DNA from: an uncultured Actinomycetota bacterium
GTDB lineage: Bacteria > Actinomycetota > Actinomycetes > JAHEKZ01
Reading direction: 5' to 3'
Length of the DNA stretch: 64,000 nt
Assembly (NCBI GenBank): GCA_963829525.1
Contig: CAWHIJ010000003.1
Coordinates: 544,001-608,000 of the forward strand
A model generated the notes under the pieces. It was not told the DNA's origin and made no database searches. It saw only the letters and a program-made list of their open reading frames with translations. The first letter of the stretch is position 1. Every line of letters starts with the position of its first letter. Position numbers and translations under genes: made by a program. This document shows, piece by piece, positions 15,744 through 20,145 of this stretch.

Positions 15744-17108
15744 ATGCGACGAAGCACCAAACTTCAGACCGTTGCCCTGGTCGCCACACTCGCCGCCGGA
15801 GTTGCCCTGGTGGCGCCCGCAACGGCGTCAGCCGAACCTTCGCCAAGTGAGCAGCTGGCGGAGAGCTTGCAGCGCGCCATGCAGAACGCTGCTTTCGACG
15901 AGGTGGTCGACTTCGAGTACGACACCGCTGACGGTCCGGCACCGCAGGTGGCGAACATGCCCAATGTTGACGTGGCAGTGATCGAGCTCGACCAGATGGG
16001 GCGTCCCATTGCTGCGGCCAACGTGCTTCAGTCGAGGGACTTCCCCGAGGGACACGTCGTCGAGCTCGATGATGATCTGGCGGCGACCGGAGTGGATTGG
16101 CGGGCCTGGGACATCGATCGGTGGGACGGAGATTGGAACGCACCGTTTGCCGCCGGTTCGCAGATCGTCCCTGGGTCGGAAGGCGAGACGTTCATGTCCC
16201 CCTACCCGGCGTCGACATTCAAACTGCTCGTTGCAGTGCACACCCTGCAGCTGGTCGACGCGGGCGTCATTGATCTGGATGCTGAGTTCGTGTACAAGCG
16301 CCAGAGGGGCGATACCTGCCTAGGTGAGAGGGCGAAGTTCCGGTCAACGACGGCAGCCGAGCTCGAGAAGATGATCACCTACTCGAGCAACCTTTCAACG
16401 TGTGCACTCCTCAAGCAACTTCACAACCTGCACGAGATCGGTGCCATGAATCAGGGCTACGTCGACCTTGGGCTGCCGACCCTCCAGGTGACCGGCACCG
16501 ACGCCGGTGCGGGTGGTACGTGGAACCCCGGTTCGATCCACATGACGGCAATGGACACCGCGCGCCTCCTGCTCATCGTCAATGGCTCACCGGGAGTTCT
16601 GTGGAGGGCCCCCGACGGCAACCCTGTCGTCGCTGACCGGGTGCTCAGCGAGGAGTCTCAGGCACTGCTGATGAAGCATCTCGGCAACCAAGGATTCAAT
16701 GAAGTGCTCTCAACGCCCAACTGGTGCGGCCTCGACTATCCCGCGCAAGGCATTCCGGCCACCGTTCCCGAGCGATGGGTCGATCCCGTCGACGGAACCG
16801 TCACCGTCGACGGCATCCCTTACTTCCAGGACGTGCGGCCGTGCAACGAGGCAGCAGAGGTGACATTCGCGCACAAGACAGGGCTGACCTACAACTACGG
16901 GTCTGACGCCGGCATCGTCAAGGCCGTTGCCGGTCAAGATGGACGGCACTACATCGTGGCGGCCTTTGCCAATCTCGGGTACCGGTACAGCGATGCCAGC
17001 CAGGCAGATTCACCTGATCTCCCTTGCTTTGTTTCCGGCGTCTGCTACACCGAGAAGTTCGCGATCTTGGGCAAGTCGATCGACGACCTCATGCGCAGGG
17101 TTTCGTAA
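15744..17108 (+). CDS. Secreted serine hydrolase, class A beta-lactamase/PBP-like fold
   Basis: Signal peptide ending ASA; SxxK (ASTFK), SxN (SSN) and HKTG motifs. Confidence 0.8.
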   Translation: MRRSTKLQTVALVATLAAGVALVAPATASAEPSPSEQLAESLQRAMQNAAFDEVVDFEYDTADGPAPQVANMPNVDVAVIELDQMGRPIAAANVLQSRDFPEGHVVELDDDLAATGVDWRAWDIDRWDGDWNAPFAAGSQIVPGSEGETFMSPYPASTFKLLVAVHTLQLVDAGVIDLDAEFVYKRQRGDTCLGERAKFRSTTAAELEKMITYSSNLSTCALLKQLHNLHEIGAMNQGYVDLGLPTLQVTGTDAGAGGTWNPGSIHMTAMDTARLLLIVNGSPGVLWRAPDGNPVVADRVLSEESQALLMKHLGNQGFNEVLSTPNWCGLDYPAQGIPATVPERWVDPVDGTVTVDGIPYFQDVRPCNEAAEVTFAHKTGLTYNYGSDAGIVKAVAGQDGRHYIVAAFANLGYRYSDASQADSPDLPCFVSGVCYTEKFAILGKSIDDLMRRVS

Positions 17109-17211: not shown

Positions 17212-17542
17212 GGGCTGCGCCACCGTCGTCGGCGCGTCATTCTCCCCAACCGGTGAGGGGACGTACCGTCCACAGTGGACGTCAGATGTGCCGCCACACC
17301 TGAGGAGACACTTCATGGTGTCGGCATGTCAGCACACCTACCTCCTGCTATCGGCTCTCGTGTCTTCCGCGGGGTCCCCCGGCCGGAGTGCAACCCGACG
17401 TTCTGCTTCCAGGGGGAGCAGTTCCGTGCGCCACTCTCCAGACGCGGCAACGGCGCGATGGCAGCGGCTCGCTGCGCGACCAGAGGTGCGGCTGTGGGTT
17501 CCGCCGACTGGCCTCGAGATCGTTCGAAGGCCGCTCGTACGC

Positions 17543-17609
17543 CGCTACGAGAGACAGCCCCGAAATCTGGCTGACGTCGGACCCACCTACGGAGCTAACT
17601 CTCGTAGCG
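17543..17609. repeat. REP-like palindromic unit 2
   Basis: CGCTACGAGAGACAGCCCCG...CGGAGCTAACTCTCGTAGCG; shares the 16-mer GCTAACTCTCGTAGCG with unit 1. Confidence 0.7.
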
Positions 17610-17729
17610 ACCCGCGCGTGGCGGTGACCCGCTTGACGGTCTGTGCGGGCCGACGCTTGAGATTCGTCGTTGCAACGCATTCGTGTCGTTGCCGGGGATC
17701 GTCAGCGGCATCACGCAGACTGGAACCAG

Positions 17730-18010
17730 ACGCAGAAAGGCCCCTCCAACTAGGCATTGGAGGGGCCTTCTGTGGTTCACCCGGAGGTGAACCGTGGACC
17801 GGCCCGAGGGCTGGCCCTGTCGACCCGAGGGTCGACGACCCGGCCGGAGCCGGGCCAGACATCGCTGCGCTTCCCCGCCAGTTGATCCGTCTGGGTCGCC
17901 CCTGCGGTCCAACTGCTCCAGCGGTTACCCGCTGGCCTGATCCGGTGAGTTGCCTCTCCGGATCGATCCTCTGGTTGCCCTTCGGATCGGGTGCGCCTCA
18001 CGGCGTCGTG
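17730..18010 (-). ncRNA. Putative multi-hairpin non-coding RNA (~280 nt), family not recognised
   Basis: Nine consecutive hairpins with minus-strand loops GUGA, GCAA, GCAA, GUAA, GCGA, UCCG, CUCG, CUCG, UCCG, followed by a terminator; no credible ORF. Confidence 0.65.
17734..17772 (-). terminator. Intrinsic terminator (probably bidirectional)
   Basis: 13-bp stem AAGGCCCCTCCAA/TTGGAGGGGCCTT ending in TTTCT on the minus strand. Confidence 0.8.
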
Positions 18011-18076
18011 AGAGAGTTCTACGCCCGATCCGCGAGACCGCGCAAGGGTTTCGAGAAGGATTCTCAAGAACTTTCT

Positions 18077-18156
18077 TCACCCACAGATTCGTCCACAGAA
18101 CGCCACGCTTGTGTCCCCAACGCATCCCCAGGGTCGTCCACAGCGCCTGTGAACAA
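18077..18156. promoter_or_regulatory. Phased cluster of DnaA-box-like 9-mers
   Basis: TCACCCACA, TCGTCCACA twice, GTGTCCCCA and GCATCCCCA at ~11-12 bp spacing, plus inverted TGTGAACAA. Confidence 0.5.
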
Positions 18157-18191
18157 GTCCCCGCCGTGCGCTGGCCCGTTGCGGTTCGGGC

Positions 18192-18671
18192 TTACGGCGT
18201 GTAGCGCTTGAAGGAGGCTTCGATCTCTTTCTCAGTCTCCGAGCGGCCTTCCCAGCTGGCGCCTTCGACCGACTTGCCGGGCTCGAGGTCTTTGTAGACC
18301 TCGAAGAAGTGCTGGATCTCGAGCTTGTCGAACTCCGGCATGTGGTGAATGTCGCGTAGGTGTTCCTTGCGAGGGTCACGGGCGGGGACACAGATGATCT
18401 TGTCGTCGCCACCGGCCTCGTCGGTCATTCGGAACATCCCGATGGCCCGGCACATGATCACGCAGCCGGGGAACGTTGGCTCGTCAAGCAGGACCAGGGC
18501 GTCCAGGGGGTCGCCGTCGAGGCCGAGGGTGTTCTCGATGAAGCCGTAGTCGGCTGGGTACCGCGTCGAGGTGAAGAGCATCCGGTCGAGGCGGATGCGG
18601 CCGGTCTTCTTGTCGAGCTCGTACTTGTTGCGATTGCCCTGTGGGATCTCGATGAAGACGTCGAACTCCAC
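18192..18671 (-). CDS. ppa: Inorganic pyrophosphatase
   Basis: KYE, YPADYG, DGDPLD and DDK motifs. Confidence 0.97.
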
Positions 18672-18771
18672 GACGGTCCCTTCTGGATGGTTCGTTGCGG
18701 TGGCTTAGGGTCGCTTTTGCGCGACGCTTCAGTGTCCCGCACGACTACATAACCGCCACGAGGGGGTCCGG

Positions 18772-20145
18772 ATGCCGCGAGCCCGCTGGTGGGCGATCGG
18801 CGCCCTGTCCGTGGTCACCCTTCTGGTCGTGCTGCTCGATGTCACAGGGGTCATTTTCACCGAGGAGGCGCCGCCGCTCCCGCCTCCTGCAGTCGTCGTC
18901 CCCACGCTGGCGGACGCCGCCGATGCGGTACCCGCCGCGGTGGAGCCGGGACCTGTCGCTGCCGACCCTCGGGTGGTGCGCGCCGTCGAGCGAGCGTTGG
19001 AGTCTGATGCGCTGGGTACCTCGGTCCATGGCTCGGTGGCCCCGCTGGCTGGGCCGGCTGCTGCTTGGATCGACGTGGACGGTTCCGGGCAGGCCACACC
19101 CGCGTCCACACTCAAGCTTTGGACCGCTACGGCGGTGCTCGACGCCTACGAGCCGCACAGTCGGTTGGAGACGTCAGTTCTGTGGGACCCCGTTGACGAG
19201 CGTCTTGTGCTGGTCGGTGGGGGAGATGCCACTCTCACGACTGGTCCCGACCGTGCTGCAGACACCGCATCGCTGGCTGAGCTCGCCAAAGCCACGGTTC
19301 GAGTCCTGCGTCGCGAAGGTGTCACGTCCGTGCGGCTGGGATATGACGACGGGCTCTTCTCCGGCCCCGCGGTTTCGCCGGCGTGGGAGCCCACTTACGT
19401 CACCTCGGGTGTGATCGCGCCTGTCACTTCGTTGATGGCCGATCAGGGCAGAGTCACCCCCGATGGTGTCGCCCGGCTGCCCGACCCGGCGTCGGGCGCT
19501 GCTGAGAGCTTTGGGGCGTTGCTCGAAAGGGGTGGTGTCGCCATTCGGGGTGCGGTCAATCAGGTGGCATCCTCGAGCAGCGAACCGATCGCATCGGTGG
19601 TCTCGCCCCCCATGAACGACCTGGTCGAACGCATGCTGCGAGACAGTGACAACCAGCTCGCCGAGTCACTGGGTCGGATGGCGGCACTGGCGCAGGGCGA
19701 GCCGGGAAGCTTCGCCGGAGCGGTACGGGCACTTGAGCAGGCGGCTGCAGATCAGGGAGTCGATCTCGGCGCCTCCGACCTCTTTGACGCCAGCGGGCTC
19801 TCCCGCGAGGACACCTTGCCGCCCGAGTCGCTGGTCGAGGCCCTTCAATCAGCCAGTGCGGAGCCACAGCTGGCATCGATCCTCTCGGGCCTGGCCGTTG
19901 CCGGCTTTGACGGAACGCTGGCCGACCGATTCGTGCTGGGAGAGGCCGCCCAAGGAGCCGGCGTCGTACGCGCCAAGACCGGCACTCTCACCGGAATCTC
20001 AGCCGAAGCCGGTCTCGTGACCACGTGTGACGGCGGCCTTGTGGCGTACGCATTCATCGCTGACGAGGTCGTCGACACCGAGGCGGCCCGGGCTGCACTT
20101 GATGACGCTGCGGCGATCTTGGCCTCGTGCCGTGGGCAGCGCTGA
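18772..20145 (+). CDS. dacB: D-Ala-D-Ala carboxypeptidase/endopeptidase (peptidase S13)
   Basis: PASTLK, SDN and AKTGTL motifs; ppa-dacB-tilS synteny. Confidence 0.92.
   Translation: MPRARWWAIGALSVVTLLVVLLDVTGVIFTEEAPPLPPPAVVVPTLADAADAVPAAVEPGPVAADPRVVRAVERALESDALGTSVHGSVAPLAGPAAAWIDVDGSGQATPASTLKLWTATAVLDAYEPHSRLETSVLWDPVDERLVLVGGGDATLTTGPDRAADTASLAELAKATVRVLRREGVTSVRLGYDDGLFSGPAVSPAWEPTYVTSGVIAPVTSLMADQGRVTPDGVARLPDPASGAAESFGALLERGGVAIRGAVNQVASSSSEPIASVVSPPMNDLVERMLRDSDNQLAESLGRMAALAQGEPGSFAGAVRALEQAAADQGVDLGASDLFDASGLSREDTLPPESLVEALQSASAEPQLASILSGLAVAGFDGTLADRFVLGEAAQGAGVVRAKTGTLTGISAEAGLVTTCDGGLVAYAFIADEVVDTEAARAALDDAAAILASCRGQR

Follow-up and report, generated by a model that had tools for sequence, protein, structure and literature searches.

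A widespread actinobacterial small RNA gene preceded by boxes resembling DnaA-binding sites

The window analyzed here is a 64,000-nucleotide stretch of an uncultured Actinomycetota genome, in which the gene ppa is directly followed by a hairpin-rich region on the minus strand. Read in the direction of transcription, this region comprises an array of six boxes (18078-18156), an A/T-rich spacer (18046-18077) with a conserved A-rich stretch, a −35 hexamer TTGCGC (18040-18045), a −10 hexamer TAGAAC placed 18 nt after it (18016-18021), and an RNA of about 276 nt (17733-18009) ending in a terminator hairpin. The RNA start is inferred to lie 7 nt after the −10 hexamer and its end to follow the terminator. 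The −35 hexamer is embedded in a conserved CCCTTGCG, within which CTTGC is invariant in 15 of 15 homologues. In the −10 hexamer T, A, A and A are invariant, with TACAAC and TACAAA as variants. The region had been described as ORF-free, which is not literally true, as mechanical ORFs cross it at 17288-18211 on the plus strand (307 aa) and at 17777-18067 on the minus strand (96 aa). However, the 307-aa ORF has no Pfam match, and one- and two-base indels among homologues break any reading frame.

The minus strand of 17725-18050 folds to −195.3 kcal/mol (z −8.49), with 0 of 100 shuffles as good, whereas the plus strand gives −180.3 kcal/mol (z −6.91). The original prediction listed nine back-to-back hairpins followed by a terminator, with five GNRA loops and four C-G-closed UNCG/CUCG loops, and this observation is confirmed. 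The fold of the 275-nt RNA (RNA position n being window position 18010-n) reproduces eight of the nine hairpins and the terminator within 1-3 nt. Four of these are GNRA-capped and lie within 17879-17988, i.e., GCAA (17965-17988), GCAA (17939-17964), GUAA (17918-17935) and GCGA (17879-17915), most with a GG-GNRA-CC apex and purine-rich internal loops. They are followed by four C-G-closed hairpins within 17775-17856, i.e., UCCG (17837-17856), CUCG (17819-17836), CUCG (17797-17817) and UCCG (17775-17794), whose number varies from 1 to 5 among relatives. The terminator (17737-17771) has 13-nt perfect arms, with the stem AGGCCCCUCC/GGAGGGGCCU followed by UUUCUG, and a loose pattern for it matches only 3 palindromic sites in the 2.96-Mb genome. 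The ninth hairpin (GUGA, 17994-18005), whose loop varies between GUGA, GCGA and GCAA among homologues, is replaced both in the single-sequence fold and in RNAalifold by a long-range helix, P1, that pairs 18000-18007 with 17858-17865 and closes the GNRA-hairpin domain. The 5′ end pairs with a distal segment in 25 of 29 homologous RNAs, yet a local 5′ hairpin is what relatives in other families mostly keep at the sequence level, so both pairings remain possible.

The predicted structure is supported by compensatory changes. Across 15 homologues, 97.8% of cells are paired and 25 of 57 consensus pairs are changed on both sides, against 2-7 when partners are slid, and 0 of 500 shuffles reach the observed values, although the structure was derived from the same alignment on which it was tested. 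P1 comprises 7 pairs with 93% of cells paired and 2 pairs changed on both sides, while helices 3-8, in the GNRA domain, are 91-100% paired with 13 pairs changed on both sides; helices 9 and 10 fall within the C-G-closed hairpins. The strand specificity of the loops, as originally claimed, also holds. In 29 homologous RNAs, 124 of 140 four-base hairpin loops on the sense strand are GNRA (97) or YNCG (27), whereas on the antisense strand it is 2 of 109. ViennaRNA gives bonus energies to such loops, which may inflate this contrast slightly.

To examine expression, we compared the locus with metatranscriptome contigs. Contigs from four RNA-library studies cover only 17756-18001. Contigs of 230, 229 and 200 nt, with 0, 0 and 1 differences, lie wholly inside the RNA at 17756-17985, 17768-17996 and 17802-18001. 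No depth is observed over the promoter and box region 18011-18198, the contigs do not extend towards ppa, and no near-identical ppa contig was found. These contigs cannot show strand, ends or level, and DNA in RNA libraries cannot be excluded outright; the depth gaps over 17400-17634 and 18011-18198 are consistent with a discrete transcript, but on their own they prove nothing.

The sequence has one match in the 2.96-Mb genome. A mobile origin was rejected, as there is no match in plasmid or phage collections. It lies downstream of ppa in the genus, but not in three loci from other genera of the family (L012-L014), indicating that the unit moves as a whole. No conserved neighbours were found, the flanking genes being a GH3 hydrolase with a response regulator, a PAS protein, UvrD, a P450 with an S15 peptidase, and DHFR. 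Nor does any rule emerge for the distance to dnaA, which is 0.29 Mb in the window's genome, 0.38 Mb and 0.32 Mb in genomes G024 and G124, and about 1.3 Mb in genomes G104, G155 and G147. No Rfam 15 family matches the window at the gathering score, and in 20 related loci the only hits were a tRNA and an AdoCbl-II riboswitch in the flanks. A scan of named genomes with a 21-nt degenerate pattern from the RNA 5′ end gave at least 120 hits; of 120 of these, 119 were chance matches in GC-rich DNA and only one locus, L123, was a true homologue.

Upstream of the promoter, the six boxes TG(T/G)GGA(C/T) are phased at 11-12 nt or multiples of that, five running in the direction of transcription and one inverted (18148-18156). 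Their cores are invariant in 15 homologues, and a direct repeat links 18078-18098 with 18123-18143. The boxes resemble the DnaA-box consensus reported for M. tuberculosis and S. coelicolor, TTGTCCACA (PMC4285127, Table 1). Three sites within 1 mismatch of this consensus lie inside 68 nt at 18089-18156, with three weaker ones in phase, whereas the whole window holds 7 such sites in 64 kb. The same box style occurs in the genome's own dnaA-dnaN spacer.

To trace the family, we built a sequence-only model, R1, from the boxes, the promoter and the first 24 nt of the RNA. R1 scores 139.2 bits on the window locus and gives full-length matches in 14 of 19 other genomes of the window's family, at 102.9-145 bits in 13 of them and 49.6 bits in the 14th, G017. 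It also hits the dnaA-dnaN spacer, but weakly (16 bits, E 0.02). Outside that family, R1 gives near-full-length matches in 41 of 145 sampled genomes of the class Actinomycetes, spread over 17 families, and none in the 150 other genomes of a phylum-wide sample, i.e., 10 of the same class and 140 of other classes. The tallies of the BLAST search and of the class-wide R1 search (71 of 151) include one unpublished genome, G025, and the 6C tally includes four more (G033, G042, G050 and G054), but no locus described here comes from them. All 25 class loci read, plus a further locus, L237, show the same architecture. The 25 loci carry the same −35 motif, with TAGAAC, TAGAAA, TAGACA, TACAAC or TATCAA as the −10 hexamer, and 20 of them carry the conserved terminator, the stem of which is nearly invariant across families. 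Their RNAs run from 155 to over 450 nt through gain and loss of hairpin modules, and tandem gene copies occur in one family. In the 130 nt upstream of −35, these 25 loci hold 45 boxes within 1 mismatch of the consensus, against 0.036 per 130 nt in the flanks; 39 of the 45 are co-oriented with transcription, and spacings cluster at 11-12, 20-23 and 32-33 nt. As the loci were found with R1, which models the boxes, this enrichment is partly by construction.

An RNA-only model, R2, was built from five RNAs of other families. R2 finds the short forms of the window's own family at full length, with 58.7, 55.8, 63.7 and 39.6 bits against about 29 bits antisense, and sense hits in the window's genus score 27-37 bits. 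In the window itself R2 finds only the terminator, equally on both strands (30.1 and 29.6 bits), so the link of the window to the class-wide family rests on the upstream module, the 5′ 24 nt, the terminator and the intermediate short forms, not on the RNA body. R2 finds 36 of 151 class genomes at E<=1e-6, with hits abutting those of R1.

Collectively, our findings show 17733-18009 to be an independently transcribed, highly structured small RNA gene with a sigma-A-type promoter and an intrinsic terminator, belonging, by its upstream module, 5′ segment and terminator and through the intermediate short forms, to a family widespread in the Actinomycetes that Rfam 15 does not hold. The gene unit consists of a phased array of boxes matching the actinobacterial DnaA-box consensus, an A/T-rich spacer, a conserved promoter, a conserved 5′ segment, a variable number of GNRA-capped hairpins enclosed by a long-range helix, a variable 3′ domain (here four UNCG hairpins) and a terminator hairpin almost invariant in sequence. 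What the RNA does, and what controls it, we infer from sequence alone. With moderate confidence we favour the view that it acts in trans as a stable, multivalent binder (sponge or scaffold) of an as yet hypothetical protein recognising GNRA-capped hairpins, and that its transcription would be set by DnaA occupancy of the upstream boxes, coupling its level to replication and growth state. The argument for a sponge or scaffold is only indirect, namely that relatives vary the number of GNRA and UUCG hairpin modules, as multivalent RNAs do; moreover, the hairpins differ in detail, so they need not be one protein's site. The original interpretation is thus partly supported: a stand-alone structured RNA on the minus strand with its own promoter and terminator, distinct from tmRNA, RNase P, 6C and Ms1 and from repeat elements, is borne out, while the proposed sponge or scaffold role stays a hypothesis. 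It had overlooked the conserved box array, the long-range helix and the fact that this is one member of a class-wide family rather than a genus-level oddity tied to ppa.

Other readings are less probable. The RNA could be a functional analogue of 6S or Ms1, i.e., an abundant RNA that binds RNA polymerase (core or holoenzyme) and buffers transcription capacity in a lineage lacking both, which we regard as unlikely. Its size, sigma-A-like promoter, terminator and apparent abundance resemble Ms1 (PMC4191392), and its 5′ end pairs with a distal segment. The genome has no 6S match at E<=1, and although it has the Ms1 neighbourhood, with a HAD-IB hydrolase gene (TIGR01490, 203 bits; 520629-521570 of contig C3), the genome's only 6C candidate (521613-521688) and a conserved Fic-like ORF, only about 32 nt separate the HAD-IB and Fic-like genes, leaving no room for Ms1. 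R1 found nothing in the family that carries true Ms1 (0 of 4 genomes in the phylum-wide sample, and none listed in the class search), and Corynebacterium, which also lacks Ms1 and 6S, has an unrelated polymerase-binding RNA, CoRP (PMC11077062). However, no Ms1 or 6S hit appears at E<=10 on 17300-18300 or at E<=1 on 12 class loci, R2 gives no hit at four Ms1 loci, and the fold is multi-branched rather than a rod with a central bubble. Two genomes of one family (f17) carry an Ms1-like spacer beside the HAD-IB gene, sharing a CACGCUUGGUAACC stretch with true Ms1, and carry the present RNA elsewhere; the two RNAs therefore coexist and are not simple replacements. It is likewise doubtful, yet possible, that the boxes serve another regulator, such as an OmpR-family response regulator like MtrA, whose regulon would then include the RNA. 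Phased 11-nt direct repeats are typical of such regulators, MtrA sites being 5-6-nt direct repeats 5 nt apart, and the reported M. tuberculosis motif GTCACAGCG is close to the complement of these boxes, GTCCACAG (PMC5650626, PMC4285127). MtrA is also reported to bind oriC, which would explain the oriC resemblance, and the same arrays lie upstream of a YgjP-like peptidase gene in several genomes. Nevertheless, the boxes fit TTGTCCACA at 8-9 of 9 positions, including perfect copies in relatives, and the S. coelicolor MtrA half-site G/T-T-G/A-A-C-C fits poorly.

Less likely still, the locus could be mainly a DNA element that titrates or recharges DnaA, with transcription of the RNA only modulating box occupancy. 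In line with this, the box array is the most conserved part of the unit in BLAST, box arrays without the RNA occur at three other sites in the genome, and the A/T-rich stretch after co-oriented boxes may resemble origin architecture. Yet strand-specific loops, compensatory changes and a terminator conserved across families would not be expected of a by-product, and the distance from dnaA is not conserved. That there is no gene at all, but a ppa 3′ UTR, stacked terminators, a REP or MITE array or a small coding region, is very improbable: although the region lies directly downstream of ppa, is hairpin-rich on both strands and is crossed by ORFs, it has a conserved promoter, is single-copy, has frames broken by indels, and has no ppa within 1.5 kb in the three other genera of the family or in any of the 25 class loci read.

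Actinomycetes are not known to possess Hfq, ProQ or CsrA, and few of their conserved small RNAs are understood. A family present in roughly a quarter to a third of sampled genomes of the class, with a fixed regulatory module, is a concrete new object for RNA biology in a group that matters for industry and medicine. Literature searches on Ms1 synteny in Actinobacteria, on TTGTCCACA and DnaA, on DnaA boxes and small RNAs, on GNRA-bearing noncoding RNAs and on the terminator sequence found no description of this RNA, although overlap with the 824 candidate Ms1 spacers of PMC9130861 or with the CoRP sequence of PMC11077062 cannot be excluded. If DnaA controls the RNA, this would be a direct link between replication initiation and an RNA regulator, of which we found no report, nor did we find any paper describing a DnaA-box cluster fixed upstream of a conserved RNA promoter. 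In the most far-reaching, tentative view, which we consider possible but unlikely, a phased DnaA-box array and A/T-rich spacer would drive or gate a strong promoter, and the modular RNA would sequester or scaffold a protein or self-assemble through its tetraloops, giving many Actinomycetes an RNA read-out of DnaA status parallel to, and distinct from, Ms1 and 6S. The GNRA architecture and the sequence-invariant terminator hairpin offer clear handles for pull-downs and structure work, and carriers in other families are probably cultivable, so these hypotheses can be tested.

Among known systems, Ms1 (RF02566; Mycobacterium, Streptomyces scr3559) is likewise actinobacterial, a few hundred nucleotides long, apparently abundant, and a single-gene unit with a sigma-A-like promoter (CCCTTGC-type −35) and its own terminator. 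The present RNA does not match the Ms1 model, although the same library finds true Ms1 at 235-316 bits in four loci (L207-L210), and it lies about 40 kb from the HAD-IB gene and the 6C candidate rather than beside them; it also differs in its multi-branched GNRA-hairpin fold, and true Ms1 has no box array, the HAD gene ending just upstream of its promoter. The only candidate for 6C (RF01066) in the genome does not lie at this locus. 6S RNA (RF00013) is similarly an abundant, structured, stand-alone RNA with paired ends, yet it has no match in the genome, and the present RNA has no central bubble in its fold and is variable and modular in length. CoRP of Corynebacterium (PMC11077062) is a recently found structured RNA, long and abundant, of an actinobacterium lacking Ms1 and 6S; it is 516 nt and lies between tRNA-Glu genes. 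No tRNA-Glu lies in any of the 33 loci scanned, and one tRNA-Met was found in each of loci L191 and L238. CsrB/RsmZ-type protein sponges share repeated hairpin modules whose number varies between relatives, and tandem gene copies in some genomes, but here the loops are GNRA or UNCG, not GGA, and no CsrA-type partner is known in this class. Finally, DnaA-box clusters outside oriC, such as datA, DARS and the B. subtilis clusters, also contain several closely spaced, phased DnaA-type boxes away from oriC, whereas here the cluster is fixed upstream of a conserved RNA promoter.

The window comes from a 2.96-Mb, 65% G+C genome in three contigs, and the hairpin-rich stretch under study lies downstream of ppa (PF00719, E 5e-59), which occupies 18192-18671 on the minus strand, with an S13 D-Ala-D-Ala carboxypeptidase gene diverging from it and a beta-lactamase-like gene at 15744-17108. 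To examine whether this stretch is structured, it was folded on both strands and compared with shuffled sequence, and it folds far better than the shuffled controls, with -195.3 kcal/mol (z -8.5) on the minus strand and -180.3 kcal/mol (z -6.9) on the plus strand. Of the nine minus-strand hairpins listed in the original prediction, eight recur in the minimum-energy fold together with the terminator, within 1-3 nt of the coordinates first given, whereas the first (GUGA, 17994-18005) is replaced by a long-range helix pairing 18000-18007 with 17858-17865. The observation behind the original prediction is thus borne out. The sequence has a single copy in the genome and matches no Rfam 15 family at gathering score, and at E<=10 only four chance-level hits appear, the best at E 0.35.

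Several lines of evidence show that the element is a gene of its own. A BLAST search against 40 relatives found long matches in 10 of 13 genomes of the same genus, while two of the remaining three gave only about 32-nt matches and one gave none, these three being 69-76% complete; matches of 170-197 nt were also found in three genomes of two other genera of the family. In the genus the element follows ppa, yet in the three other-genus loci there is no ppa nearby. The alignment shows a conserved unit that comprises, in order, six boxes TG(T/G)GGA(C/T) spaced 11-12 nt apart or multiples of that, an A-rich spacer, CCCTTGCG as the -35, 17-18 nt, TAGAAC, TACAAC or TACAAA as the -10 with T, A, A, A invariant, the RNA, and an almost invariant terminator stem. 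RNA length is 275-278 nt here, 233-300 nt in the genus and 155-223 nt in the other genera, and the differences come from whole hairpin modules. RNAalifold predicts 57 pairs, 25 of which change on both sides; 97.8% of cells are paired, against 26-54% when partners are slid by 1-3 columns, and 0 of 500 shuffles reach any of the five observed measures, although the structure was derived from the same alignment, which favours it. The conserved terminator stem, at 17737-17771 in the window and in all related terminators, pairs a CCCCUCC strand with a GGAGGGG strand, that is, anti-Shine-Dalgarno-like against Shine-Dalgarno-like sequence, and sequence conservation this strict is unusual for a plain terminator. 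Further downstream, at about 17672-17680 in the window and at the matching position in about half of 28 related loci, a conserved CGACAC motif lies 45-55 nt beyond the RNA terminator, in the window's taxonomic order and in several other families.

Twenty public runs hold part of the stretch, six of them metatranscriptomes, and contigs of four RNA runs from four studies were placed on 17400-18800. These comprise contigs of 230 nt at 17756-17985 with 0 differences (run X15), 229 nt at 17768-17996 with 0 differences (run X16), 200 nt at 17802-18001 with 1 difference (run X19) and 139 nt at 17823-17961 with 2 differences (run X20), each lying entirely inside the predicted RNA. No run has depth over 18011-18198, the promoter and box region, and ppa is covered only by pieces with 4-17 differences, which come from other organisms. 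Contigs cannot give strand, ends or level, and DNA carry-over cannot be ruled out; nonetheless, short contigs bounded by the predicted RNA in four studies are what an abundant small transcript would give. Promoter and terminator orientation point to the minus strand, and so do the loops: in 29 homologous RNAs, 124 of 140 four-base loops are GNRA or YNCG on the sense strand, against 2 of 109 on the antisense strand.

The box core matches the high-affinity DnaA box reported for M. tuberculosis and S. coelicolor, TTGTCCACA (PMC4285127). Three sites within one mismatch lie in 68 nt at 18089-18156, whereas the whole 64-kb window holds seven, and the genome's dnaA-dnaN spacer contains the same box variants in direct repeats. 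R1, a sequence-only model of the boxes, the promoter and the first 24 nt of the RNA, hits that spacer only weakly (16 bits, E 0.02), and it also hits three other arrays in the genome, all on its contig C3. One, at C3:958990-959140, is a similar phased array with perfect TTATCCACA and TTGTCCACA-type boxes nearby; it lies upstream of a YgjP-like metallopeptidase gene and is conserved in several genomes, including one of another family (loci L015, L018, L019 and L028). The other two lie at C3:2129249-2129370 and C3:236926-237090, and the former has five CTGGGGA(C/T) boxes 11-12 nt apart followed by an unusually A/T-rich stretch, an origin-like layout.

To determine how far the unit extends, R1 was searched against progressively wider samples. 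The window's family is also its whole order in the collection (20 genomes), and in the 19 other genomes of this family R1 gives full-length matches in 14, none in two fairly complete genomes (100% and 90%), and only box-array hits in three incomplete ones. In a class sample of 151 genomes, 71 have some hit at E<=1e-3, and 41 of the 145 outside the family have a near-full-length hit (model start <=35, end >=150), in 17 families. In contrast, 150 other genomes of a phylum-wide sample, 10 of the same class and 140 of other classes, gave none at E<=1e-5. The tallies of the BLAST search and the class sample include one unpublished genome (G025), and the 6C tally includes four (G033, G042, G050 and G054), but no locus described here comes from them. 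Among named records, a sequence-pattern scan proved unspecific, and the only true homologue is titled 'Actinomycetes bacterium'.

We read 25 of the R1 loci, and one more later, and all of them show boxes, an A-rich spacer, a CCCTTG(C/T)G-type -35, a TAGAA-type -10, a conserved 5' segment and several GNRA hairpins, often GGG-GCAA-CCC. In 20 of the 25, a terminator whose stem and CUCAUAC loop are nearly invariant lies within 420 nt, and a loose pattern for that terminator matches only three sites in the window's whole genome. None of 20 loci matches an Rfam family at gathering score in the RNA itself, and none of 12 does at E<=1. Much longer versions of the RNA (over 450 nt) occur in family f17, one of the other families (loci L186, L194, L200 and L203), where they are built from repeated modules ending in CCGAGCGAUCGG-type GNRA hairpins, with no terminator within the 420 nt read. 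Family f6, in turn, has two or three tandem genes, each with its own boxes and promoter, in which copies of the whole unit (boxes, promoter, RNA) are spaced about 440-570 nt apart (genomes G024, at C1:1890427-1891974, and G070, at C51:106850-107984; also G099, G144, G164 and probably locus L184).

As an independent test at the RNA level, we built R2, a covariance model from only five RNAs of other families and without promoter sequence. R2 finds own-family short forms at full length with 58.7, 55.8, 63.7 and 39.6 bits, against about 29 bits antisense, and in the class sample it finds 36 of 151 genomes at E<=1e-6, five of them seed genomes, with hits that abut the R1 hits. In the window and its genus, however, R2 finds the terminator only, with 30.1 and 29.6 bits on the two strands of the window and 27-37 bits on the sense strand in the genus. 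The long form in this window is therefore tied to the family through its upstream module, its 5' end, its terminator and the intermediate short forms, and not through its body.

Taken together, the analysis establishes the gene, its expression in RNA libraries, its structure and its family, whereas two further points are inferences from sequence: that the boxes are bound by DnaA and set the promoter's activity, and that the RNA is a stable, multivalent binder. The latter rests on the gain and loss of hairpin modules, the tandem gene copies, the strict GNRA and UNCG capping, a structured 5' end and a 3' hairpin that is invariant in sequence, all features of long-lived, protein-binding RNAs, so that the case is one of analogy. 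The interpretation in the original prediction, a stand-alone structured RNA acting as a sponge or scaffold, is accordingly supported only in part, since the stand-alone gene holds while the proposed role remains inferred. Alternative readings are a polymerase-binding role, a mainly DNA-level role, and another box-binding regulator in place of DnaA; for the last, an MtrA-type regulator remains a rival, as its reported sites are short direct repeats with 11-nt spacing and one reported motif is close to the box complement.

Finally, we compared the RNA with Ms1, which is defined by its model (RF02566) and by its place beside a HAD-IB hydrolase gene, one gene from 6C (PMC9130861, PMC6582537). The window's genome has that neighbourhood at C3:519844-521688, with a conserved Fic-like ORF, a HAD-IB hydrolase gene and a 6C candidate at 45.2 bits, just under the gathering score, yet only about 32 nt separate the Fic-like ORF from the HAD-IB gene in the spacer where Ms1 would lie, and the genome appears to lack both Ms1 and 6S. 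True Ms1 in four genomes of another family (235-316 bits) has no box array and an unrelated sequence. In five genomes checked, the RNA described here is 0.5-2.5 Mb from HAD-IB and 6C or on another contig, whereas in family f41, another family of the class sample, it lies about 8 kb away. Moreover, two f17 genomes have an Ms1-like spacer beside the HAD-IB gene and also carry this RNA elsewhere. The two RNAs are therefore distinct.
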